Assembly (NCBI GenBank): GCA_963666975.2
Contig: CAXVYR010000004.1
Coordinates: forward strand, 1,280,001-1,344,000
Source: Terriglobia bacterium
GTDB lineage: Bacteria > Acidobacteriota > Terriglobia > 2-12-FULL-54-10
Direction of reading: 5' to 3'
DNA length: 64,000 bases
Numbering within the stretch: the stretch's first letter is position 1; each line of letters begins with the position of its first letter. The notes beneath the pieces are model-generated. The model saw only the letters and a program-made list of their open reading frames with translations, had not been told where the DNA came from and ran no database searches. The position numbers and the translations under genes were made by a program. Shown in pieces: positions 25,973 to 37,886 of this stretch.

Positions 25973-26166
25973 CTAGCTCGTTTTCGCAAATGGTGTAGAC
26001 CGCTCCGCCATCGGAACCAGGCAACCTCTTTGGCTGTCATCCTGAGCGAAGCGAAGGATCTGCTTTTGTACAAGGGGATTGGCCCTTACCCGGCGAAAAG
26101 CAGATTCCTCGCTGCGCTCGGAATGACAACGCGTTGTGGTTTACACCATTTGCGAAAACGCTCTAG
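25973..26166. mobile_element. MITE-like element D carrying a GTCATCCTGAGCGAAGCGAAGGATCT-type REP pair
   Basis: CTAG flanks; TIR CGTTTTCGCAAATGGTGTA(G/A)ACC; inner inverted pair at 26036-26061 and 26101-26127. Confidence 0.85.
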
Positions 26167-26169
26167 CTC

Positions 26170-26330: not shown

Positions 26331-26425
26331 TTGAGTGCAGGGAACTTCCTGGGCCTGTACCGAGCGCTGAGTGCGGTCGAATATGATTCATTTCATAGAA
26401 GAAATCCGCAAGGGAATTCATCTGC

Positions 26426-26455
26426 AAAAAAAAACGGCCCTGAATGCCGGGGCCG
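26426..26455 (-). terminator. Rho-independent terminator after iorB
   Basis: CGGCCCCGGCATTCAGGGCCG hairpin followed by T9 on the minus strand. Confidence 0.8.
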
Positions 26456-26483
26456 CAAGCATTCTTGCCAAGATGTAGCCGGA

Positions 26484-28649
26484 TCAGGCCGTGCTCAGTT
26501 CTGCCGGGCGGATGGGCAGCCGGCGTATGCGCTTGCCTGTTGCGGCGTAGATGGCGTTGACGACTGCTGAGAAGATCGGGGGCGTGCCTGGCTCGCCCAT
26601 GCCGCCGGGGGTTTCCGTGCTGGGCACGATGTGGACCTCGATCTCCGGCATCTCGTTCATCCGCAGCATCTGGTAGTCGTGAAAGTTGGACTGGACGACC
26701 CGGCCCCGGTCGATGAGTATCTCGCCCTTCAGAAGCGCGGTCAGCCCGTATACGATGCCGCTTTCCACCTGCGCCTTGATTGTGTCGGGGTTGATGATCC
26801 AGCCGCAGTCCACCGCCGCCGTGACACGGTGCACACGAACCTCGCCGTCCCGGCCGACGGAAACTTCCGCCACTTGGGCGATGATGCTGCCGAAGGATTC
26901 ATGCACGGAGATACCCCGTGCCCTGCCGCTGGGCAATGGCTTTCCCCAGCCGGCATTCTCGCCGGCTAATTCCAAAGCTGCTTTGTGGCGGGGAGCCTTG
27001 TCGAGCAGTTGCCGACGCAACTCCAAGGGGTCCTTGCCGGCCATGACGGCGATTTCGTCGAGGAAAGACTCCGTGACATAGCCGTTGACGGAATTACCGA
27101 CCGAGCGCCAGTAACCGACCGGAATGCCCGGTTCGAATCTCACATACTCGACGCGAACGTTGGGAATGTTGTAAGGCAGGTCGGCGGCGCCTTCCATAGA
27201 GTTGCGGTCAACGCCTCCCGCTGAATCCAGACCGCGAGGGTTGCCTCGGGCGCGCAGCGAGGGCTGCACGAGCCGCTGCATCCAGGCAACGGGCATGCCG
27301 GACTCATCCAGAGCAGCCCAAAAGCGTGCGTAAGAGACGGGGCGATAATAGTCATGCTGGATATCGTCCTCACGGGTCCAGATCACCTTCACCGGGCGGC
27401 CGACAGCCTTGGAGGATTCCACAGCGTCGGCGACAAAATCGGTCTGGCCGCGGCGGCCGAAGCCACCGCCCAGATAGAGAGTGTGGACCTTGACAGCGTC
27501 CGGCGGCAGACCGGTGATCTCGATCGCTGCGCGGTGAGTGCTGGTCTGGGATTGGGTGGAAACCCAAACATCGCAGCCATCTGCACGGACATCGGCGGTG
27601 CAGTTCATCGGTTCCATGCAGGCGTGCGCCAAGTAAGGGACTTCGTAGGTGGCCTCGAAAGTGCGGGAAGCCCCCGACATGGCAGCGGTGAAGTCGCCGT
27701 CGTTACGCGCCACGGCGCCCGTTTTCTGGCCGAGTTCTGCCAGTTGCTTGCTGATGTCGGAACTGCTCAATCCGGCCAGGGGGCCTTCGTCCCACTGAAT
27801 CTCCAGGGCCTGGACGCCCTTTGTGGCGGCCCAGTAATTGTCCGCGATGACGGAAATACCGGAGCTGATCTGGATGACATGACGGACGCCGGGAACGGCT
27901 TTGGCCTTGTCGGCGTTGAAGCTTTTGACCTTCCCTTCGAAGACGGGACAGCGGACGACCCGCGCCACGAGCATATTGGGCCGCGAGATGTCTATGCCGA
28001 AAACCGCGCTGCCGTTGACCTTCTCTGGAATATCGAGGCGCGCCAGGGGCTGGCCGAGCAGACGGAATTCGTCGAAGTCCTTGAGAGTGACCTGTTCGGG
28101 GACCGGCAGAGTCGAGGCCTTTTCGACGAGCTGGCCGTACTGCAGACGGCGGCCCGTGGAGGAGTGGATGACTTCTCCCTTTTCGGTGGAGCATTCATTT
28201 TCCGGGACGCCCCAGGTCTGGGATGCGGCAGCGACCAGCATGGCGCGGCCGGTAGCGCCGGCCTCGCGGAACAACTTCCACATACCCCGGACGCTGCGGC
28301 TGCCGGCGGTGGACTGCGATCCGCCAAAACCGGGATTGCCGTAGGCGGGGTCGGCAGGCGCCCAAACGGTATCCAGCTTCTGCCAGTCCATGTCGAGTTC
28401 TTCGGCGATCAACATCGGCATGGAGGTCATCACGCCCTGGCCCATCTCCAGTTGCGTGAGAGTGATCGTCACAGTATCGTCGGTGCCGATCTGGATCCAC
28501 ACGTTCGGCTCGAATACCTCCGAAGCAGCCGTCGTTTCCTCATTCATTCCGAGGTAGCCGGGCAAATAAAGCCCGATCAGGAGACCGCCGCCAGCGGCAG
28601 CCCCGACTTTCAAGAATGTGCGTCTGGTGAGATTCATTGCCTGTGCCAT
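26484..28649 (-). CDS. iorB: xanthine-oxidase-family molybdopterin subunit (isoquinoline 1-oxidoreductase beta-like), Tat-exported
   Basis: TRRTFLK Tat motif; EMGQGV.T, LAHA.MEPMN, LGGGFGRR, W.REDD, G.GEPG.P. Confidence 0.9.
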   Translation of the reverse strand: MAQAMNLTRRTFLKVGAAAGGGLLIGLYLPGYLGMNEETTAASEVFEPNVWIQIGTDDTVTITLTQLEMGQGVMTSMPMLIAEELDMDWQKLDTVWAPADPAYGNPGFGGSQSTAGSRSVRGMWKLFREAGATGRAMLVAAASQTWGVPENECSTEKGEVIHSSTGRRLQYGQLVEKASTLPVPEQVTLKDFDEFRLLGQPLARLDIPEKVNGSAVFGIDISRPNMLVARVVRCPVFEGKVKSFNADKAKAVPGVRHVIQISSGISVIADNYWAATKGVQALEIQWDEGPLAGLSSSDISKQLAELGQKTGAVARNDGDFTAAMSGASRTFEATYEVPYLAHACMEPMNCTADVRADGCDVWVSTQSQTSTHRAAIEITGLPPDAVKVHTLYLGGGFGRRGQTDFVADAVESSKAVGRPVKVIWTREDDIQHDYYRPVSYARFWAALDESGMPVAWMQRLVQPSLRARGNPRGLDSAGGVDRNSMEGAADLPYNIPNVRVEYVRFEPGIPVGYWRSVGNSVNGYVTESFLDEIAVMAGKDPLELRRQLLDKAPRHKAALELAGENAGWGKPLPSGRARGISVHESFGSIIAQVAEVSVGRDGEVRVHRVTAAVDCGWIINPDTIKAQVESGIVYGLTALLKGEILIDRGRVVQSNFHDYQMLRMNEMPEIEVHIVPSTETPGGMGEPGTPPIFSAVVNAIYAATGKRIRRLPIRPAELSTA

Positions 28650-28650
28650 G

Positions 28651-29115
28651 TTACGCCTCCGCTCGGATCGTCTGCGCCGCGCGGTGAATGGCACGGCGGA
28701 TGCGCTGGTAGGTCCCGCACCGGCAGATGTTGCCCGACATGGCGCTGTTGATGTCCTCGTCGGTGGGGTTGGGGTTGCGGACCAGCAAGAAAGCCGCCGA
28801 CATGATCTGTCCAGACTGGCAATAGCCGCACTGGGGCACCTGCTCGGCGATCCATGCCAGTTGCAGGGCGTGCGTGGAATCGGCCGAGAGGCCTTCGATG
28901 GTCGTAATCTTCTTCCCGGCAGCCGCCGAGACTGGAGTGCTGCAAGAGCGGACCGGAGTGCCTTCCAGATGCACGGTGCAGGCGCCGCACTCCGCTATGC
29001 CGCAGCCGAACTTCGTTCCGGTCATTCCCAGCGTCTCCCGGATGACCCACAGCAAAGGGGTGTCCGGGCTGACGTCCACTTCGTGTTGCTTTCCATTGAC
29101 GTTCAGAAAAATCAT
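28651..29115 (-). CDS. iorA: [2Fe-2S] subunit (isoquinoline 1-oxidoreductase alpha-like)
   Basis: [35 protein letters not shown]. Confidence 0.92.
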
Positions 29116-29780
29116 GGCCAGCTCCTGAATGTGCGAATGCCCTGCGTGAATTTAAGTCGCCCCCGCAGAGACGGGATTTGATATGGCAAAGTTTATCCAT
29201 TTCCGGGGGCAAGAGCAAGGAAGAAAAGGAGGAAGATGATGGGGGTAGTGGGTAGTTTCCCATTTGCCGACTCTGCGGCCAAGTGACGCAGAAATCGGTA
29301 AATAAAGTGGCGTTACTCGCGGGTAATCGGTGAAGCGACTGTTTGCCAGTATGCTGGGGCGGATAGAAAGCTGCCGCTTCCGTCGGGATAGCCGAGACTG
29401 CGGCACCCAAGAAACGGATTTCGATATCCTCCAGGAATGGACAGATGTCTGAAAAAGCTGATTCTGGATGCCGGGGCGAAGGGTTTTCAGGACCCGGAAA
29501 AGGGCGGCTGAGAGTCTGTGGGACTGTCTGGGAAAAGAATCTTTCTTGGAGGAGTCGGTTGGAAGGAATCGTGTGTATACTGTCAACCGCCGGAGAGTCA
29601 AAAAACTAATTCCGGTTCATGTTCGTCTGCTCTGAGGCTTGTTTCTGCTGTCACCGCAGAGGAATCCGTAGGGGCAGCATATCACGAAACCGCCTCTAAT
29701 ACCTTTCCCGCCTGTGCGCGATATTGACTGCCTTCCAGGTGGTGGTATTCCTGATAGCGGTGGGGGGGGGTCTGAGTGGG

Positions 29781-29836
29781 AATCTATGGGTTCCTATAGA
29801 TTATTGTTTACAAACCGGGGTGTAGATGGTTATCAT
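29781..29836 (+). promoter_or_regulatory. inverted-repeat operator and promoter of the island HTH gene
   Basis: AATCTATGGGTTCCTATAGATT palindrome (29781-29802), then TTTACA-18 nt-TATCAT. Confidence 0.55.
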
Positions 29837-29847
29837 TGCTAACATTC

Positions 29848-30060
29848 ATGAAAACGATTACACCCGAACGTTGGTATACCGCAAGAGAGGCCGTCGAACT
29901 TCTGGAGCGCGAAGTCACCGAAGCGACGGTGAAAGAATACTGCAATTCAGGCAAGCTGAAAGGCAAGAAAATGGGACCCAAAAAGCGGTGGATGGCTCTT
30001 GGGTCCTCTATCCAAAAACTGCGACGAGATTGGGGCATCGACGATGCAAAGCGGAACTAG
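29848..30060 (+). CDS. small excisionase/MerR-like HTH (HTH_17) protein
   Basis: WYTAREAVELL....TEATVKEYC.SGKLKGKK.G...W pattern. Confidence 0.8.
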   Translation: MKTITPERWYTAREAVELLEREVTEATVKEYCNSGKLKGKKMGPKKRWMALGSSIQKLRRDWGIDDAKRN

Positions 30061-30118
30061 CACAGTTCGGCTGAACTGTGGCATCATTACTGCTTTGCCA
30101 ATACCAGAGAGGAGACGC

Positions 30119-30331
30119 ATGCCAGCACCGCAGAAAAAAAGAGGGAAGCGGCGCGCATACACTGACCCACAGGATGCGCTTGCCAGATTTGACAATCCGC
30201 AGGTTCAGCGGGAGTTTCGTAAGTCTATGGACCGGTGGGCAAAAAAAACCCAACCCCTAATTGACGCCGTCCAGTCAGCTGAGCGACTCGACGAGAACGA
30301 TTTCGCCATCAGGATCAATACCAAAGCGTAA
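30119..30331 (+). CDS. 70-aa hypothetical peptide
   Basis: GAGGAG RBS; basic N-terminus, helical middle, C-terminal ERLDENDFAIRINTKA; 21 nt upstream of the next gene. Confidence 0.7.
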   Translation: MPAPQKKRGKRRAYTDPQDALARFDNPQVQREFRKSMDRWAKKTQPLIDAVQSAERLDENDFAIRINTKA

Positions 30332-30352
30332 GTTTGGGCCAGGCCCACGCCC

Positions 30353-31879
30353 TTGGAAAAACTCGAACAAAAACTTGACTTTTGGAAGCTAGGTGAAAAG
30401 CCCCTCGCGGAACTCCTCCAGCTCGAATCGCCACCTTTCATGGAACGGGGGGAGGCGCACCGTCAGCTTTCGTTTGTCGAGAAGCACGTCCGCGAGCTAG
30501 GGGCAAAATTAACGGTTGTTGAGAATCGTTATGTGGACCGGGACTACATGGAGGAACACAGTGTTTTTTATTCCAAGAACTTAGTCCCGTATCACAACTG
30601 GTGCCAACGCCTGCACTTCTTTAGGATGGAAGGGAAAGACCTAAAAGGTGAATTTAGGCGGCTCCGGGGTATCCGTGATAAGGCAGATTTTCAGTCAGAG
30701 TGCGAAGAATTTTCCACGAGGCACTACTTAGGCTTTAGTGTTATCAAACCCTTACCAGGGTGTCCGGTGGGGCGCACGGTCTTGCGGCCTTTCCCAGAAG
30801 ATGCTTCACCGGACTATCAACGAGAATTCAAATGCGTTTGCCTAAGAAACAAAGCTCATTTGCTCGGCATTCCGCTCTCCGTAACCGGCCTTCCATTTCA
30901 GCAACAAGATCTTGGCGTTAGCGCCTGTGCTACAACGGCCCTCTGGTCCGCACTACAAAGAGCCCGGGAACTCGAAGAAAGTGGGACCGCAACTCCAGCG
31001 CAAATAACGCTTCGGGCTTCTCAGTTTACGCTTCCATCCGGCAGAGCCATGCCGTCAGAAGGATTATCTGTCGACCAGATGTGCCAGGCAGTGCATTCCT
31101 TTGGTTACGCGCCAATTCTCTTCCGTGCGGAAGATTTCGAGTCTTCGCGGGGCGTTCTGTACGCCACGGTTCGTTCGGGAATCTCTCCCGTTCTGATTTT
31201 GGAGCAATCAAAAAAGAGCCTTAAACATGCAGTTGCGGTGGCTGGCATAAAGCTTAGAAAACAGCATGAGCCGGATTTCCTTATAGAGCTGATCGATGCT
31301 CGGTCTAACGACATGGCGGGGCTGTACATCCATGACGACCGGTTCGGACCTTATCTCACCACTCAGATTGAGAAGCATGGGAATCGATTACTGCTTCATG
31401 TGCCGTTTCCACCTCCACTTAAATCCGAGACCTGGCTTCTCTCGCACATTCTCATCCCAATGCACGCCAAGATACGCCTGTCGTTTGGCGATCTTCGGAA
31501 AGCAGCCATTCATGTGGTCCGGTCAGTTCATTCATTCCGGGCCAATGTCATGAACGTTCCGGAAACCGTGATTTCCTGGGATTCTCGGATCATCAGAGCG
31601 CACAATTACGTAGAGGAGATTCTTTTGTTTGGTGAGCAAAGGGTGTCTGACCTGTTAGTCGAGAGACTTTGTGCCGCGGTTTGTTTCTCCCGGTATCTGG
31701 CTTTGGTCAGAATCCGGGCGGACGATCTAGACCCAATCGATGTCCTTCTCGACACGACGAGCACGGAAAGGAATCTCACTGCGCTTGCGGTTGTCCGGAT
31801 CGGAAACTCCCAGCCAAATACTGCTGCGATGGCCGCTCTTTTGGGAAAGCACTATGACTGCCCGGTGATAGTTAGCTAG
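30353..31879 (+). CDS. hypothetical protein with predicted papain-like (C39/transglutaminase-type) Cys-His-Asp core
   Basis: FQQQD....ACATTALW (Gln oxyanion residue plus Cys), HAVAVAG (His), LYIHDD..GPY (Asp) in papain order; no signal peptide. Confidence 0.7.
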   Translation: MEKLEQKLDFWKLGEKPLAELLQLESPPFMERGEAHRQLSFVEKHVRELGAKLTVVENRYVDRDYMEEHSVFYSKNLVPYHNWCQRLHFFRMEGKDLKGEFRRLRGIRDKADFQSECEEFSTRHYLGFSVIKPLPGCPVGRTVLRPFPEDASPDYQREFKCVCLRNKAHLLGIPLSVTGLPFQQQDLGVSACATTALWSALQRARELEESGTATPAQITLRASQFTLPSGRAMPSEGLSVDQMCQAVHSFGYAPILFRAEDFESSRGVLYATVRSGISPVLILEQSKKSLKHAVAVAGIKLRKQHEPDFLIELIDARSNDMAGLYIHDDRFGPYLTTQIEKHGNRLLLHVPFPPPLKSETWLLSHILIPMHAKIRLSFGDLRKAAIHVVRSVHSFRANVMNVPETVISWDSRIIRAHNYVEEILLFGEQRVSDLLVERLCAAVCFSRYLALVRIRADDLDPIDVLLDTTSTERNLTALAVVRIGNSQPNTAAMAALLGKHYDCPVIVS

Positions 31880-33033
31880 GATTGAATATCGGAATTGCCG
31901 AGACTCTCATCGATTTCGACTTCAGTCTCCACGCCCCGAAGCCGTTTCGCATAGCGGTAAGATTCGAGTGCCTCATTAGCAGTGGCAAGTTTAGCGGTGG
32001 CCCGGATAATTTCGCCCTCCCCCATTCGGTTGAAATCAAAATTGTCGAGGGATTGGTCAAATAAGTACGTAAAATCGAGCCTGTGCCTCGGCAGATTTTC
32101 CGGACGCTTAATATCGGGGTGAAAGTATTCCGAGGGGACAGTGACGTCGGTGTGATAACGACCAATGTATTCGCAATAGTTCTTGTCGGCCAATATGGTT
32201 GGGAGTTGGACGGGGCACTTAGGCAGGTCTCGTGAATTTGGAGGCAGGGGAATCAACCGCGTGGCTTTCCCGGACGGGCCTTCTGATGCTAGCGCAATTG
32301 TCCGCATAGCAAGTTCCAGAGCTTTTTCAAGGGAGTCGATCTTCGGGATTTGGAACTCATCGGACGCCGTCCCCATCACCTCCTCTAGGTCGCGCATCGC
32401 GTTTGCTAATTTTCCCGATTTCACCATATGACCTACGGAATTTACAGAGAATGCGATGCCTGCTGGGAATCGATGATCCTGCCACCAACGCTTGTCGCCT
32501 TGCGAGGAGAAATAGTTGACACCAGCGAGCCACTCCCATGTCGTACGACGGGAGCCCGGTTGTTCGAGTTTGATTCGATCCGTGTAAACCCCGTCGGGCT
32601 CTATCTGTTCATGTAAATAAAGAGAGCAAATCCTCAATGCTATTTCCTTGACGGTTTGATCAGGTACTGCATTGACAAGTCGTTCCGAAAGCAGAACGGT
32701 AATAAATCCGCTCGCAATGCCATCGAAGGCCATCTTTTTCCATGCCCGCCGCGACTTTTGGATCTTCCTTTCCATTGCTTCGTCAGGACCAAGAAGATCA
32801 CTCTCTTTCAAAAGGCAATAACTTATAAGCCCTTTTTTGGCTGCAACCCGACCGAATAAACAAGGTTGGTGCACTTGCAGCCACTTATTTAGTTCACTGA
32901 CGATGGAGTCATCCTGAGAGGCGGGATTTAATACCGTTGCAAGCGTTTTCTTAACTTCGGGAGTAAAGCCGACCTCGTTACGCCACTGGTCTTCTTTCAG
33001 AAGGCTCATCAATCCCGAAATCTGCGATGCCAT
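31876..33033 (-). CDS. hypothetical protein, possible remote YqcI/YcgG-like heme enzyme
   Basis: 385-aa ORF with GGAGG RBS; QPCLFG..AA and HRFP..IAF..N resemble YqcI/YcgG motifs. The ORF is well supported; the family call is tentative. Confidence 0.55.
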   Translation of the reverse strand: MASQISGLMSLLKEDQWRNEVGFTPEVKKTLATVLNPASQDDSIVSELNKWLQVHQPCLFGRVAAKKGLISYCLLKESDLLGPDEAMERKIQKSRRAWKKMAFDGIASGFITVLLSERLVNAVPDQTVKEIALRICSLYLHEQIEPDGVYTDRIKLEQPGSRRTTWEWLAGVNYFSSQGDKRWWQDHRFPAGIAFSVNSVGHMVKSGKLANAMRDLEEVMGTASDEFQIPKIDSLEKALELAMRTIALASEGPSGKATRLIPLPPNSRDLPKCPVQLPTILADKNYCEYIGRYHTDVTVPSEYFHPDIKRPENLPRHRLDFTYLFDQSLDNFDFNRMGEGEIIRATAKLATANEALESYRYAKRLRGVETEVEIDESLGNSDIQS

Positions 33034-33072
33034 CGAGCCTCCGTCATCTAGAGAGAAGCAGAAGTTGGCCTT

Positions 33073-33186
33073 AGGTACTTCCCGCTATGATACCACGGGG
33101 AACGAGTACGCTGATTCAGCGATGAAGCAAAGTTGGCCAGGTACTTCCCGCTATGATACCACGGGGAACGAGTACGCTGATTCAGC
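33073..33186. repeat. perfect 48-bp tandem duplication (66-bp period) containing a promoter-like motif
   Basis: AGGTACTTCCCGCTATGATACCACGGGGAACGAGTACGCTGATTCAGC at 33073 and 33139; minus strand contains TGGTATCAT (extended -10). Confidence 0.9.
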
Positions 33187-33335
33187 AAAACAGTTTCTGA
33201 TCGGTTCCCGTCGCGCCCTCCACAAGATGCTCGTGCGGTGGATCACCCCACTCCAGCCCCCTCGGGGCGGGAACCTGGAAGAAGCTCTCCGGCAGGGTGG
33301 AATTGGAAGGGGGTAGGATTTTGGCTGGTGGTGGC

Positions 33336-33356
33336 CGAATCCCACCCTCGCCGCCA
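33336..33356 (+). other. tRNA 3'-end scar (att-like)
   Basis: CGAATCCCACCCTCGCCGCCA = T-arm half, acceptor stem and CCA, resembling tRNA-Ser. Confidence 0.65.
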
Positions 33357-33562
33357 GAATTCTCTCCGCATTTTCAGCAGGGAGGAGTAGGCCCTCCGGC
33401 CCTATCGTAGTAGAATCGCGGCTGGAAAATCTCTTTCGGCTTTGCGGTTTGCCGCGCTCTCAAGAATGTTTTCAAATACACTCAGCTCGTGCCTGTCAGG
33501 GCTCGAACCTGTCAGACGAAGCCCCCGTCGGAAACAAGGCCGGCAGGAAAGGATGTGAATCC

Positions 33563-33955
33563 ATGTTCTGCAGAAATTGCGGTAAAGAAGTGCCCGAGCA
33601 AGCTGTGATGTGCGTGTCCTGTGGGTGTCCCCCGAAAGACGGGAAGAAGTTCTGCCAGCAGTGCGGGGCCGAAACGACTCCCGCCGCCGATGTGTGCGTA
33701 AAATGCGGCGTCAAACTCGCCGTCGCCGTGCCTGCGGATGCAAAATCCAAATTGACGGCGGGGCTTCTCGGCATATTCCTAGGCGCGTTTGGAGTGCACC
33801 GCTTCTACCTGGGATACGTCGGCTTAGGAATCGTCCAAATCATCGTCACAATCATTACGCTCGGCCTCGGCGCGATTTGGGGATTTATTGAGGGCATTCT
33901 GATTCTGACAGGGTCCATGAACAAAGATGCCAAAGGGCAGCCTCTCAAGGAATGA
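33563..33955 (+). CDS. zinc-ribbon + TM2 domain membrane protein
   Basis: Four CxxCG motifs then KSKLTAGLLGIFLG.FGVHRFYLG. Confidence 0.9.
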   Translation: MFCRNCGKEVPEQAVMCVSCGCPPKDGKKFCQQCGAETTPAADVCVKCGVKLAVAVPADAKSKLTAGLLGIFLGAFGVHRFYLGYVGLGIVQIIVTIITLGLGAIWGFIEGILILTGSMNKDAKGQPLKE

Positions 33956-34119
33956 GCGCGAGATACTTCGCCGGACGCAGGCTACCCGCTACGCCGCCAC
34001 CGTCGAATCTAACCCATCCAGTTCGCGACCTTCCTCCGGCGCTCAGATTGTAGAGTGCACAAAGCGAGGGAAGGCCTTCATCGCCTCACTATGGTCTCAG
34101 CGGTTGCAGCTCGTTGTTT

Positions 34120-34515
34120 TTAGCGGTTGGCGAGAATCGGAAGACCCTTGGTCCCGATGAGCCGCTTATCGGCCGTGACGAGCGTCAGCCCGAAGACCCT
34201 GGCCGTGGCTGCGAGAAACCGGTCGGCTGGGTCTCGATGGGGGAGTTGAACCCGCCGAATTTCCAGCGCCACTTCGTGAGTGAGCGGAGCTTCCTTGAGC
34301 GGCACTTCCTGGAGCGCCCGTCTGATCCATTCCGCCGTTCCGACATTCGCTGCAATCCGCCCCGCTTCCCCTAGCATCAGCAACTCCCATAAGCTGATGG
34401 GCGACAACCAGGATTCGTTATCCGGATTTCCCAGAGTCTTACGCACATGGGCACTTAGCTTCTCCGGTTCAATCAGGCTCCAAATCCAGATGTGGGTGTC
34501 CAGCAGCAGCTTCAC
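34120..34515 (-). CDS. vapC: PIN-domain toxin (VapC family)
   Basis: LLLDTH..IW, S.ISLWE, HRDPADRFL.ATA, LVTAD. Confidence 0.92.
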   Translation of the reverse strand: MKLLLDTHIWIWSLIEPEKLSAHVRKTLGNPDNESWLSPISLWELLMLGEAGRIAANVGTAEWIRRALQEVPLKEAPLTHEVALEIRRVQLPHRDPADRFLAATARVFGLTLVTADKRLIGTKGLPILANR

Positions 34516-34754
34516 TAGCGGAGCGCCTCCCAATCCTGCTCGTCCCCGATGGGTGAGACGATGTCGCCTCGAATTTGCGCTGTGCCTTTCATGCAGCCCA
34601 GCCAGCGCTTAGGGCGGGCCGGTGGCGGTGGCGGAACGATTTCCGCAACCGGCTTCCCAAAACGGGTCACCAGAACAGGCTTCCGCGTGCGGCGCACGCC
34701 TTCCAGCACCGCCAGGCATTTCGCCTTAAATTTGGAAATGGCTATTTCTTCCAT
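34515..34754 (-). CDS. Phd/YefM-family antitoxin
   Basis: IAISKFKAKCL..L..V......VLVTRFGKPVAE; overlaps vapC start; upstream palindrome ATGGTC-AAA-GACCAT. Confidence 0.9.
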   Translation of the reverse strand: MEEIAISKFKAKCLAVLEGVRRTRKPVLVTRFGKPVAEIVPPPPPARPKRWLGCMKGTAQIRGDIVSPIGDEQDWEALR

Positions 34755-34832
34755 AGTACCGGTTCTCCAAATAGATTGTACTATGGTCAAAGACCATGGT
34801 CAATTAAGAACCTGGCAAGCACATTCGCTTGG

Positions 34833-34882
34833 TGCCTTGAAAACCGTTGACGGTCCGTGGGTTGAATCCCCCCTCACCGCCA
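34833..34882 (+). pseudogene. degenerate tRNA-Ser(TGA) 3' half
   Basis: CTTGAAAACC anticodon loop, shortened variable arm, GTGGGTT-GAATCCCC.CTCACCGCCA. Confidence 0.7.
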
Positions 34883-34911
34883 TAGTCGGTTTGCCGCTAC
34901 CCCAGTTCAAG

Positions 34912-35127
34912 CTACAAAATGGCAGTCTCTATATACTGGCAGTGCGTGGAGGGTTCGGGGATGGGCAGCCCTTCTTCTCTCAAGCCCTCCAAGTGAAGTT
35001 CGATCGCTTCTTTTATATGGCGCTCGACCGCTTCCAACGTCTTTCCCGTAGAGACGTAACCTGGAAGGTCGGGAACATAAGCCGAGTAGTTGTTCGGGCC
35101 TTTCTCGATGATCACAGCGTATTTCAT
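34912..35127 (-). CDS. hicB: HicB-family antitoxin-like protein (orphan)
   Basis: YAVIIEK....YSAYVPDLPG.V.TG.T.E......EAI..HLE.L...G.PIP. Confidence 0.88.
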   Translation of the reverse strand: MKYAVIIEKGPNNYSAYVPDLPGYVSTGKTLEAVERHIKEAIELHLEGLREEGLPIPEPSTHCQYIETAIL

Positions 35128-35178
35128 CGGTCCTCTTGTTTCACCTGTCACTGATGCGAGATTTTATGATGCAAGCCT

Positions 35179-36390
35179 TCACGTCCGGTAGCTCGCGTTG
35201 ATGCGGATGTACTCTTCCGTGAAGTCGCAGGTCCAGAAGCGCGCTGTAGCCTTCCCTCCCGGCAACACCATTCGGATGAGCACTTGCTTGCCGCGCAGTT
35301 GGCGCTGTGCGGCGGCCTCGCTGAACTTTGTCGCTCCTCCTTGGCGGCAGACCCGGATTCGGTTCAGGTAGATATCGGCGCTGCGCGGATCAAACTTCAC
35401 CCCGGCGTTGCCCGCGGCGGAAAGAATCCGTCCCCAATTGGGGTCCGCTCCGGCCAGGGCGGTCTTGACCAGCGACGAAAGAGCAATCGCACGGGCCAGC
35501 GCCTCCGCCTGTTTTTCCGATGCCGCTCCCTCCACGCGAATCTCCGCCACCCGGCGCGCGCCCTCGCCGTCGGCGACCATCGCGATGGCCAACTGCTGCG
35601 CGATCTCGGTCAATGTTTGGAGAAACTTTTTTCCGGCGGGACTTTTTTTCGTAATGGCCCGATTCCCGGCCATTCCGTTGGCCATGAGATAGACCGTATC
35701 GTTCGGAGAGGTGTCGCCGTCCACGGAGATGCGGTTGAAGCTGGCCGCGCACATGCGGCGCGCCGCCGCCTGCAGGAAGCGAGGATCGAGGGCCGCGTCG
35801 GTGAAGAAAAATCCCAGCATCGTCGCCATGCGCGGATGGATCATCCCCGCGCCTTTTGCCATGCCCAGGATCGTGATGCGGCGGCCTGCCAGAGGAATCG
35901 TGCGGGAGACCACCTTGGGCCGTGTGTCGGTGGTCAGAATGGCGCGGGATACGGCGTGAACCGCCTGGGGATGCATCCGGCGAACCAGCGCCGGAAGCAG
36001 CCCTGTGATGCGGCGCGACTCGAGCGGCACGCCGATGACGCCGGTCGATGCCACGAGCACCTGCTCCGGGCGGATGTGGAAAAGTTCGGCGGCCTTCGCG
36101 GCGCACTGCCGGGCCGCGCGCGCCCCTTGCGCGCCGGTGGCGCAGTTGGCGTTTCCCGCGTTGACCAGGATTGCCCGCGCAGCGCCGCGGTTGCGCCGTA
36201 GATGGTCTCGTGAAATCTCAATGGGCGCGGCCTGCAGGCGGTTGGTGGTGAACAGCGCCGCCACGCGCGCCGGGACCATCGAGTAGATCAAGGCCACATC
36301 CGGTCCGTGACCGTGCGTGCGCAGCCCGCCATCGCCTGCGGCGAAAAGAAAACCTTTCGGGAGTGGAATGTTTTTGGTCGCTTTGGTCAT
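35179..36390 (-). CDS. argJ: ornithine acetyltransferase / N-acetylglutamate synthase
   Basis: NAGNAN..TG, STGVIG, TTDT, KGAGMI.P.MATML, VDGDTS.ND, DGEGA, INASYRT. Confidence 0.96.
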   Translation of the reverse strand: MTKATKNIPLPKGFLFAAGDGGLRTHGHGPDVALIYSMVPARVAALFTTNRLQAAPIEISRDHLRRNRGAARAILVNAGNANCATGAQGARAARQCAAKAAELFHIRPEQVLVASTGVIGVPLESRRITGLLPALVRRMHPQAVHAVSRAILTTDTRPKVVSRTIPLAGRRITILGMAKGAGMIHPRMATMLGFFFTDAALDPRFLQAAARRMCAASFNRISVDGDTSPNDTVYLMANGMAGNRAITKKSPAGKKFLQTLTEIAQQLAIAMVADGEGARRVAEIRVEGAASEKQAEALARAIALSSLVKTALAGADPNWGRILSAAGNAGVKFDPRSADIYLNRIRVCRQGGATKFSEAAAQRQLRGKQVLIRMVLPGGKATARFWTCDFTEEYIRINASYRT

Positions 36391-36492
36391 TAGGCTTTTC
36401 GGGCTTTCAGGGCTTTTGGGAGCGGTCAGTTTACCGCAACAGGCGCAGGGGGCAAGGCAAAAAAACCATTCGATGCATTGGAGTGCGCAACG

Positions 36493-36729
36493 TATTGAAG
36501 ATCACATCATATAGTGGCGATGCTTTCCGTCAGGGCACGCCTTCAGGCGTGCCGTTACCTCGTGGCGTTTTGTGCGCTTTAGCGCCTGAGGTGCACCTTC
36601 CGGTGCTGCCCCGTGGGATGGCTCAGGCCTCAGCGGCTGAAGCCGCTCTGTGAACTCCTCCTGGCGGCACGGTTGAAACCGTGCCCTGACGATTCCTCTC
36701 CTTGTCGCTATGTTATGCGAAATTCAATA
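36493..36729. mobile_element. MITE-like element E with BIME-like palindromes
   Basis: Imperfect TIR TATTGAA..TC.CAT.A.ATAG; internal CGTCAGGGCACG..CGTGCCCTGACG and CCTCAGCGGCTGAAGCCGC. Confidence 0.65.
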
Positions 36730-36743
36730 GGAGCTGTCCGGCC

Positions 36744-37886
36744 TCAGAGGCTGGCGATCAAATGCGCCAGCAAGGCGGCGCGGCGGGGCAGCTCCCGCAG
36801 CAGGATGTTTTCGTGAGGCGCGTGCGCGCCTTCGCCGACGCCTCCCAGCCCGTCCAGAGTGGGGACTCCCAGGGCAGCCGTGAAGTTGCCGTCCGAGCCG
36901 CCTCCCACGGCGGCCTCTAGCAGCTCAATGCCCAGCGGACGGGCCAGCGCGCGCGCCCGCTGGAAGAGCTGGGCGACCTGCCGCGTTCGTTCGAGCGGCG
37001 GGCGATTCTTCCCGCTGGAGACTTTCATGCTCGTTCGCCGGTCGGCGGGTTGGAGCGACCGAATCTTCCTTTCAATCTCCCGCTGGTCCCGAATCCTGGC
37101 AACGCGCACGTCCACCACAGCGGAGGCCTCCGCTGCGACGACGTTCGAGCGGGTGCCGCCGGAGATCACTCCCACGTTTACGGTGATGCCCCTGCGCCGG
37201 TCGGCGAATTGCTTCACTCGTAAAACCTGCCGGGCCAGTTCCTCGATGGCGCTTGCCCCCTTTTCCGGGTCCAGCCCGGCATGAGCGGCGCGCCCTTTTA
37301 TTTGAATTTCGAATTCGCCGACACCCTTTCGGGAAGTCTTCAACGCTCCCTTCAATCCATGGGCCGGCTCCATCACCAGGACGCAGTCGCTGCGGCGCGC
37401 CTCGCGTTCCGTGAGGGGACGGGAGGCGAGGCTTCCGGTCTCCTCATCGGAGGTGAGCAGCAGAACGACTTTTTTCTTCACAGGGATGCGCAGTGTCCGC
37501 AGGGCGCGCAGCGCGAACAGGGCGGCGACGATTCCCGATTTCATGTCGAACACGCCCGGACCATAAACGCGTCCCTGCCGCACGCGGAACGGCATGCGGG
37601 CAATCGTGCCGCAGTCCCAGACCGTGTCCATGTGTCCCAGCAGCAGGATCTGGCCGGACGTTCGCACCGGCCCCAGCCGAAACTCCGCCCGCAGATGGTT
37701 GCCGGTCTGCCGGGAAGGGAAAACCCGGACGCGGGCCTGCATCCGGCGAGCAATCCCGCCTATCATCGCCCCGAAGTGGTCAACAGCGGCTTTGTCCGTG
37801 CTGGGGGATTCAGCCTCGACCAATCGCCGGAGCATCTTCACCATCTCGCCCTGTTGAGCCTGGAGGGTGCGCAAAATGGAATCCAT
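36744..37886 (-). CDS. M20 family metallopeptidase (glutamate carboxypeptidase-like)
   Basis: GHMDTV, GPGVFDMK.G, DEE.GS, GGGSDGN, G.GAH...E. Confidence 0.92.
   Translation of the reverse strand: MDSILRTLQAQQGEMVKMLRRLVEAESPSTDKAAVDHFGAMIGGIARRMQARVRVFPSRQTGNHLRAEFRLGPVRTSGQILLLGHMDTVWDCGTIARMPFRVRQGRVYGPGVFDMKSGIVAALFALRALRTLRIPVKKKVVLLLTSDEETGSLASRPLTEREARRSDCVLVMEPAHGLKGALKTSRKGVGEFEIQIKGRAAHAGLDPEKGASAIEELARQVLRVKQFADRRRGITVNVGVISGGTRSNVVAAEASAVVDVRVARIRDQREIERKIRSLQPADRRTSMKVSSGKNRPPLERTRQVAQLFQRARALARPLGIELLEAAVGGGSDGNFTAALGVPTLDGLGGVGEGAHAPHENILLRELPRRAALLAHLIASL

Follow-up and report, generated by a model that had tools for sequence, protein, structure and literature searches.

A pair of adjacent genes, encoding a papain-fold cysteine enzyme of 508 residues (hereafter E) and a 70-residue protein (p) whose tail is predicted to lie in the catalytic cleft of that enzyme, can be recognized in a 64,000-nt stretch of the genome of a Terriglobia bacterium (contig CAXVYR010000004.1, positions 1,280,001 to 1,344,000; hereafter the window). 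The pair is undescribed, with no family name, structure or function on record in the libraries and literature searched. In the window, it belongs to a set of four genes that looks like a conflict or defence cassette gained by horizontal transfer, in which the gene for a small helix-turn-helix (HTH) protein (H) precedes p and E, and a gene for a 385-residue protein (Y) converges on them. An earlier note, made from the letters of the sequence alone, had delimited a candidate novel three-gene system of H, p and E in AT-rich DNA behind a palindrome. The three co-oriented and tightly spaced genes, their lower GC content and the palindrome are all present, but in the subfamily of the window the unit has four members, including the convergent and AglA-like Y.

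E is encoded at 30353–31879 on the forward strand from a TTG start codon, and its homologues are conserved from about residue 6 on, which indicates that its long N-terminus is real. The family is large: a word-indexed search found more than 1000 relatives, and 3473 representatives of 50% identity clusters were recovered at an e-value ≤ 0.001 (899 at ≤ 1e-30), with no name and no Pfam domain on any of the 3473. They come from Acidobacteriota, Planctomycetota, Verrucomicrobiota, Gemmatimonadota, Myxococcota and other phyla, and in the window's own genome E is single-copy. An AlphaFold2 model built from a 64-sequence alignment (mean predicted local distance difference test score (pLDDT) 92.3, predicted template modelling (TM) score 0.92) divides into an N-terminal alpha/beta domain (residues ~1–154; 30353–30814), a papain-fold catalytic domain (residues 155–372; 30815–31468) and a C-terminal domain (residues 378–508; 31484–31879), all on the forward strand. 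On structural comparison with VIA-align, the best match of the central domain is staphopain C (Z 15.4, root-mean-square deviation (rmsd) 3.4, 166/173 residues aligned), and 55 chains, mostly papain-clan enzymes, reach Z ≥ 8. The next matches, at Z 11–13, are PeiR, a C39 double-glycine protease, prostaphopain B, UfSP2, IdeS and ZUFSP, with UfSP2, ZUFSP and phytochelatin synthase lying at Z 11.4–12.9. Foldseek gives 11 matches at an e-value ≤ 0.001, the best at 2.8e-6, and the EndoMS/NucS entries in its list are low-ranked (probability 0.15–0.85, TM ~0.13).

The putative catalytic residues point in the same direction as the fold. Gln183, Gln185, Asp186, Cys192, His292, Asp328 and Asp329 are invariant in 62/62 sequences drawn from all locus types, and in the model Cys192 (codon 30926–30928, +) opens helix 192–208, His292 (31226–31228, +) lies in strand 290–302 and Asp328 (31334–31336, +) ends strand 321–328. 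Thus, the Q-x-C...H...D arrangement in papain order, which the earlier note had read from the translation, falls on a modelled papain fold, and on the joint evidence of predicted fold and catalytic residues E is a papain-type (clan CA) cysteine enzyme. Membership of C39 is not supported: none of the Pfam C39 models matches E at an e-value ≤ 1, p lacks a double-glycine motif, and no transporter is kept beside E. The protein Atlas holds unnamed look-alike clusters for E, one of them with Peptidase_C39_2 in 11% of its members (score 0.91), which serves as a lead only. The two flanking domains also have conserved residues of their own. In the N-terminal domain, which lies outside the predicted interface with p, Q38, E57, Y60, D62, Y73 and R86 are kept in 60–62 of the 62 sequences, and this domain may form a second ligand-binding or catalytic site; it has no sequence match in PDB, Pfam or PHROGs, and neither the profile of E nor its N-terminal 156 residues gave a meaningful match against PDB sequences. 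Structural searches with the whole model were filled by matches to the papain domain. In the C-terminal domain, K373, Y419, R447 and D467 are invariant, and matches there to TP6A_N (e-value 0.16) and phrog_34214 (0.0075–0.03) are too weak to use. Viral contigs yielded one partial E-like ORF (open reading frame; model positions 13–210), on a 298-kb contig, which is no evidence for a phage origin of E.

The gene for p (30119–30331, +) ends 22 nt before the start codon of E and has the strong ribosome-binding site claimed for it, an AGGAG that ends 4 nt upstream of its ATG. The protein comprises a basic N-terminus, a helix at about residues 29–57 and the tail D61-F-A-I-R65-I-N-T-K-A70. The C-terminus had been singled out as distinctive, and the tail ERLDENDFAIRINTKA is indeed the conserved portion of the protein. 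Across the family, a variable N-terminus, frequently basic, leads into a helix of ~30 residues, which is followed by an acidic patch and a D-hydrophobic-x-hydrophobic-[RK]-hydrophobic core. Past the hydrophobic-Arg-hydrophobic core there follow 0–14 residues, which in the subfamily of the window are the conserved N-[AT]-[KR]-x. Contigs from RNA libraries cover p and the p–E junction in 3/3 RNA runs of one study, with one bridging 30115–30504; DNA carry-over is possible, and parts without cover carry no information.

The pairing of the two genes was surveyed over 75 genome loci encoding a relative of E. In unbiased first passes, tblastn with p found a relative in 19/75 of these loci and an iterated hidden Markov model of p in 31/75, always on the same strand and just upstream of E; at the other loci the ORF ending at the start of E has the same kind of C-terminus. 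The three groups of p so obtained align in register, with A-I-R-I corresponding to N-L-R-L and to L-R-I-R-I (hhalign e-values 1.1e-5 and 0.002). A pooled tail profile then detects a p-like ORF directly upstream of E in 68/70 evaluable loci, i.e., those with at least 200 nt present upstream of E, against 0 matches among ~13,500 other ORFs, a result that measures specificity rather than independent discovery, since the profile was built from the same ORFs. The predicted complex, with an alignment as input for each partner, has an interaction prediction score from aligned errors (ipSAE) of 0.84 in all three runs, as opposed to 0.02 for the best of three controls; the mark set for this score is reached by 58/80 solved complexes and 2/110 mismatched pairs. 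At least 89% of contacts are common to the runs, the partner has pLDDT ≥ 80, and there are at least 150 contacts. In this complex, p residues 61–70 touch E residues 185, 191–193, 289–293, 330 and 364–365 in the catalytic cleft, I64 touches V240 in an invariant PSEGLSxDQM loop, and the helix of p packs against E helices 377–402 and 488–499, the C-terminal helices 378–402 and 488–499 forming the predicted dock. Genomic co-occurrence and modelling thus support the earlier proposal that p is a dedicated partner of E, in a near-universal pairing. Docking of this kind cannot tell a substrate from an inhibitor.

The novelty of the pair, also claimed earlier, is upheld by every library consulted: p, E and Y have no match in Pfam, NCBIfam, PADLOC v2.0.0 (e-value ≤ 1) or PHROGs, and a type-2 E likewise has no PADLOC match. 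No published description of the p–E pair or of the cassette was found in the literature searched, where the supplementary tables of studies on Bub, CapK/CapS and nuclease–protease systems might list such neighbours.

The fourth gene, Y (31876–33033, −), is convergent with E, the 3' ends of the two overlapping by 4 nt. It stands beside E in 25/75 genome loci, all 25 of which belong to the window's subfamily of 33 loci, and is convergent with E in 22/25 of them; in the remaining three (L005, L009 and L015) it lies beside E in another arrangement. Seen from the side of Y, E is convergent to it in 43/80 metagenome loci, and where the room available is at least 1600 nt (60 Y-seeded loci), E is present in 37 and absent from 23. 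A search at an e-value ≤ 0.001 gathers 824 relatives of Y, which is present in 2/401 genomes sampled from the window's phylum; in one genome (G399) a homologue with an N-terminal extension has no E nearby. The finding's end, placed at 31879 in the earlier note, should therefore move to about 33033–33270 to take in Y.

The model of Y has a pLDDT of 81, with a tail (residues 331–385) below 50 that is predicted to be disordered and nonetheless has conserved MGxGxx[IV]R and K[RK]x[RK]G motifs, whatever the partner of Y. Its only clear structural match is AglA (9ub3_A; Z 9.8, rmsd 3.9, 189/243 residues aligned), the next chain being at Z 4.7; Foldseek also lists AglA (e-value 0.046, probability 0.84), and ranks heme domains of nitric-oxide synthases after it with low probability. 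AglA is the prototype of the YqcI/YcgG heme-thiolate arginine N-hydroxylases, with the heme ligated by Cys44 (PMC12866846). In Y, Cys58 within QPCLFGR is at least 90% conserved and Cys273-Pro274 is invariant. The lone segment that hhalign pairs with YqcI/YcgG sets QPCLFGR against FPCFFGQ (probability 4%, e-value 0.01); the FPC and CPF motifs of that family are visible in one family member and in source names. PF08892 has no match on Y at an e-value ≤ 1 and none in the window's own genome, a profile of Y found no meaningful match among PDB sequences, and the protein Atlas has no match for Y. Because of the low hhalign probability, Y is best described as AglA-like in predicted fold and probably of the heme-thiolate type, and is not assigned to PF08892.

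H (29836–30060, +) is a small HTH protein of the excisionase/MerR-like kind, with a weak match to HTH_17 (e-value 2.3e-4, under the curated cut-off) and, in PADLOC v2.0.0, a weak match to mad1 only (0.0015). It has 74 residues if read from a TTG start and 70 from the ATG at 29848, the latter being the likelier start. The palindrome (29781–29802) is imperfect, its 10-nt arms showing one mismatch per arm pair and being separated by 2 nt; it lies 34 nt upstream of the HTH ORF and is a candidate operator. No second copy of it exists in the window, including upstream of Y, and hence there is no support for action of H at the promoter of Y. Homologues of H occupy the same position in 17/33 close genome loci and 28/80 Y-seeded metagenome loci, making H the least constant member of the cassette. 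At one metagenome locus (L144:761-5149), H, a p-like ORF, proteins of 178 and 480 residues, a dCTP-deaminase-like gene and Y follow each other on one strand, and E is missing; according to hhalign, the 178- and 480-residue proteins are unrelated to E, and the arrangement was treated as a one-off.

The cassette has the features of a recent acquisition. The GC content at 29500–33000 is 0.50–0.54, against 0.62–0.64 in the left flank and 0.58–0.66 in the right flank of the window, and the low-GC stretch of ~4 kb that holds H, p and E lies between an aldehyde-oxidase-type operon (26484–29115, −) and argJ (35179–36390, −). Both same-genus genomes align over 26400–29229 and 33337–37500 with nothing between those points; the cassette is missing from both, which agrees with the island setting proposed earlier and indicates, from the comparison of sequences, that the H-p-E-Y block is a recent acquisition at the strain or species level. 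No tRNA or integrase marks the block. Just upstream of it, at 29336–29618, is a dispersed repeat of ~280 nt with many copies at 76–80% identity in its own, same-genus and same-family genomes, which may be an element akin to a miniature inverted-repeat transposable element at the left insertion edge. On the other side, 40 nt upstream of the start codon of Y, there are two exact 48-nt units placed 66 nt apart from start to start (33073–33186); a DNA-run contig has the unit once (joint 33072 to 33139), and therefore its copy number varies. A further DNA-run contig of 1441 nt has ~35-nt matches at 29732–29766 and 33267–33302 and carries 1049 other letters between them, in place of the 3500-nt cassette. 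It might represent alternative cargo at the same site or just short shared repeats, the case being weak because the matching sides are short.

Outside the subfamily of the window, p–E and Y are each met in other company. In the Y-only loci a cluster with a caspase (Peptidase_C14)–DEAD-box helicase fusion of ~1050 residues, tightly linked to Y, recurs in 11/23; the fusion was characterized by Pfam at three loci (L102, L133 and L141) and by PADLOC at L141, where it matches HamB models (e-value 2e-31). The combination with Y has the look of a Hachiman-like variant not yet described, in which Y would replace HamA. Other neighbours in the Y-only loci are a CHAT protease, a type III restriction enzyme, a dCTP-deaminase-like protein, an RmrA/CapP-like regulator and PDC-S54. 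Y is linked with proteases of three families, namely the papain-fold E, the caspase C14–helicase fusion and CHAT. For its part, E lacks H and Y by profile in 42/75 genome loci. About 17 distant p–E loci (30–40% identity) are placed divergently upstream of an operon for three proteins: one of the Multi_ubiq type, which ends in VEGG, one that is Prok-E2_E-like and has an SYHPH motif, and a JAB-ThiF fusion. This gene complement corresponds to that described for Type I Bub (10.1101/2024.11.21.623953). In the Bub-type operons of L029–L045, L073 and L074, the ubiquitin-like protein (Ubl; VEGG plus 0–8 residues) and the E2 are separate overlapping ORFs and not fused. At these Bub-linked loci an HTH_3 gene, of a family different from that of H, stands ahead of p in the place of H, and its products share a conserved C-terminal VDPxFLRASRA...VRRVTxALL segment. 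Genes of the E1, E2 and Ubl kinds occur only beside these distant p–E homologues, with none in the window's cassette. The remaining p–E pairs have mixed contexts, including Fic/DOC, type I restriction-modification (R-M), an AAA_21/SMC-like ATPase, a Ser/Thr kinase and housekeeping genes. Neither a transporter nor a reductase partner nor any other tailoring gene is kept beside E.

The best reading of these observations, to be taken as tentative, is that the cassette works as a protease switch within a conflict module, p being an active-site plug and Y a protease-partnered effector. Under this reading, the helix of p would sit on the C-terminal domain of E with the I64-R65-I66 tail threaded into the catalytic cleft, such that p acts as a pseudo-substrate plug, an antitoxin-like inhibitor in trans that holds E silent. 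Once p is lost or displaced, E would be able to cut its targets, of which the co-inherited Y would be the most likely in the subfamily of the window. Y would be a proenzyme-type effector, AglA-like, probably of heme-thiolate fold and with its disordered conserved tail. The tail motifs of Y would offer basic-residue sites, suited both to a papain-type enzyme that accepts hydrophobic-Arg, a signature that the tail of p bears as well, and to Arg/Lys-specific bacterial caspase homologues. H would act as an autoregulator, with the upstream palindrome as its site on the operon. From the available patterns we infer inhibition by p over turnover, cleavage of Y, binding of heme by Y, the trigger and a defensive role for the cassette. 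The reading of Y as an effector is by analogy: one effector-like gene combined with varying proteases matches the pattern of Hachiman, AVAST and Canu, in which metallo-beta-lactamase (MBL)-fold pro-nucleases pair with trypsin-like proteases or caspases (PMC12799240; 10.1101/2025.09.03.673762). The accessory setting also counts in favour of the protease switch, as seen in the absence from both same-genus genomes, the low GC content and the VapC/Phd and HicB-like neighbours, as does the placement of related loci beside R-M, RmrA/CapP-like, PDC-S54, Fic and Bub-type genes.

Several observations weigh against the protease switch. The modelled docking of p in the cleft fits a substrate equally well as an inhibitor, and the variable 0–14 residues past the core of p would be expected of a tag or of a precursor that is processed. 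For a toxin, E is large, and the invariant residues of its N-terminal domain are not explained by a plug. As most distant p–E pairs are without Y, the latter cannot be the general target of E, and since the tail motifs of Y are also found in copies with no protease seen nearby, these motifs may be structural. The likeness of Y to YqcI/YcgG is one of fold, the support from sequence being weak, as the absent Pfam match and the hhalign probability attest. PADLOC v2.0.0 has no model for p, E or Y; the contexts of the other p–E loci are mixed, down to housekeeping genes; and E and Y, being convergent, are not co-transcribed.

An unlikely alternative, albeit the first to be weighed, is that p is a ribosomal precursor in a pathway resembling that of a cofactor or of ribosomally synthesized and post-translationally modified peptides (RiPPs). 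The C-terminal domain of E would then read the helix of p as a leader and E would cut the tail, with Y, as a heme N-oxygenase like AglA or DcsA, modifying Arg/Lys of the tail or the released peptide to give a small molecule or signal. The predicted complex, with the tail in the cleft and the helix on a separate domain, is as expected in leader recognition, and the variable residues that follow the tail suit a precursor. N67 and K/R69 are conserved specifically in the Y-linked subfamily (K/R in 28/32 rows), the Bub-linked and other subfamilies lacking them. The chemistry would fit as well, for the characterised YqcI/YcgG enzymes hydroxylate a guanidine nitrogen of arginine derivatives and the substrate of AglA is a C-terminally derivatised Arg (PMC12866846). 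However, position 69 swaps between K and R, and the column of R65 is Q or Y in four alignment rows (L007, L013, L024 and L028), three of which (L007, L013 and L024) bear Y. Y likewise accompanies the caspase–helicase fusion, the CHAT protease and the type III restriction enzyme without p–E, which would be unexpected of a tailoring enzyme. Further, p–E is mostly found without Y, and the conserved transporter, reductase partner and additional tailoring gene of such a pathway are missing.

Rather unlikely, too, is a role of H-p-E as a transcriptional switch akin to CapH+CapP, wherein E would cut the HTH repressor on a signal, p would modulate E, and control would be exerted over Y in the window and over the Bub-type operon in the distant subfamily. 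Bub operons carry upstream controllers, i.e., CapH+CapP, CapW or CapK+CapS, and it is this very spot that the HTH_3–small ORF–E arrangement occupies divergently upstream of the Bub operon in the ~17 loci (10.1101/2024.11.21.623953; PMC13373217). A DPxFLRAS motif near the C-terminus of the HTH_3 proteins also resembles the DLLNLRL tail of p. Nevertheless, the HTH family varies by subfamily (HTH_17-like as against HTH_3) and H is missing at many loci; in the window, Y is convergent and has no copy of the palindrome upstream; and many p–E pairs have no evident adjacent operon to control. Moreover, the p profile gives no match to the HTH ORFs, and E does not match the capP model of PADLOC.

A plain toxin–antitoxin system, with E as toxin, p as antitoxin, H as autoregulator and Y as an unrelated hitch-hiker, is improbable. 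The small gene set tightly upstream of a larger one, the sporadic spread, the toxin–antitoxin genes next door and the occurrence of p–E alone in many contexts would all accord with it, and gene order together with the predicted binding of p to E fits a type II pair. Yet Y is kept beside E in 25/33 close genome loci and 43/80 Y-seeded loci across several phyla, which is not hitch-hiking, and E has three conserved domains.

More doubtful still is the idea that p is a Pup-like modifier without a beta-grasp fold and E a thioester-forming transpeptidase, or the matching deconjugase, that would remove the residues past the hydrophobic-Arg-hydrophobic core and join p to a target amine. The conserved core followed by 0–14 variable residues recalls ubiquitin-like precursors, many tails of p read LRLR, LRLK or IRFR, near the LRLRGG of ubiquitin, the structural neighbours of E include UfSP2, ZUFSP and the transpeptidase phytochelatin synthase, and one p–E subfamily is genomically linked with Bub-type E1/E2/Ubl operons; but p lacks Gly-Gly, the neighbouring Bub-type Ubl ends in VEGG unlike the tail of p, p is predicted to wrap E in the manner of a stable subunit more than of a turned-over substrate, and staphopain and the C39 peptidases score as well as or better than the deconjugases against E. 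It is a very improbable proposition that p is a new prokaryotic tag of ~60–70 residues, helical and activated by E without ATP at a hydrophobic-Arg-hydrophobic(-Arg) C-terminus like the tail of ubiquitin, to which Y and the Bub operons would be alternative downstream or competing modules.

The p–E pair is very common in soil and freshwater phyla and offers a directly testable model, that of a cysteine peptidase with its cleft predicted to be occupied by a co-encoded small protein. Y, in turn, represents a large family that probably has the fold of a newly described heme-thiolate class and that is found in the company of a Hachiman-like helicase and of proteases from three families. Should Y prove to be an effector gated by a protease, bacterial immunity would gain an effector chemistry other than that of nucleases, possibly oxidative; should p prove to be a precursor or a tag, a new route of peptide processing or tagging would come into view. 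The link to Bub-type operons provides a new accessory module for those poorly understood pathways under either reading of p or Y.

The right-hand neighbourhood of the cassette deserves a brief description. Adjoining it at 33449–33955 is a gene for a 168-residue protein with double zinc ribbons and a TM2 domain, which probably lies outside the insertion, because one same-genus genome (G401) aligns from ~33337 on. Between the cassette and argJ, at 34120–35151, are VapC (PIN) with a Phd/YefM-type antitoxin and a HicB-like antitoxin gene. To the left of the aldehyde-oxidase-type operon, a second short dispersed repeat (26000–26167) has copies at 79–91% identity elsewhere in G000 and G402.

In terms of known systems, the C39 bacteriocin-processing peptidases share the clan fold of E (Z 12–13) and handle a helical peptide with a short motif at the active site, whereas E has neither a Pfam C39 match nor a fused ABC transporter, and p has its tail at the extreme C-terminus in place of a double-glycine motif. 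The CapH+CapP, CapW and CapK+CapS sets place HTH and protease genes divergently upstream of Bub-type operons, as in the distant p–E subfamily; CapP, however, is an ssDNA-activated zinc metallopeptidase, in contrast to E as a cysteine peptidase with a small partner, and the neighbour in the window is convergent. With the YqcI/YcgG proteins (AglA and DcsA; PF08892), Y appears to share the fold; its xPCxFG is set against their FPC motif in the low-probability hhalign segment and Y has a C-terminal Cys-Pro, but it is ~140 residues longer, has a conserved disordered tail and is found in protease and defence contexts rather than in biosynthetic clusters. The p–E arrangement also resembles staphopain–staphostatin and SpeB–Spi, in which an operon partner, a dedicated cytoplasmic inhibitor, occupies a papain-fold cleft, staphopain C being the best match of E. 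Staphostatins have a beta-barrel fold, and their genes lie downstream of the one for a secreted protease, whereas p is predicted to be helical, is encoded upstream and is predicted to dock on an extra C-terminal domain of E, which differs from the staphopains in being cytoplasmic, having three domains and belonging to no Pfam family. Finally, the known effectors of Hachiman, AVAST and Canu are MBL-fold nucleases and their proteases trypsin-like or caspases, in contrast to the AglA-like Y, with its putative cleavage, and the papain-fold E with its own small partner; in both cases, an effector gene has been inherited with proteases of several families, and one of the partners of Y is itself a caspase–HamB-like helicase.

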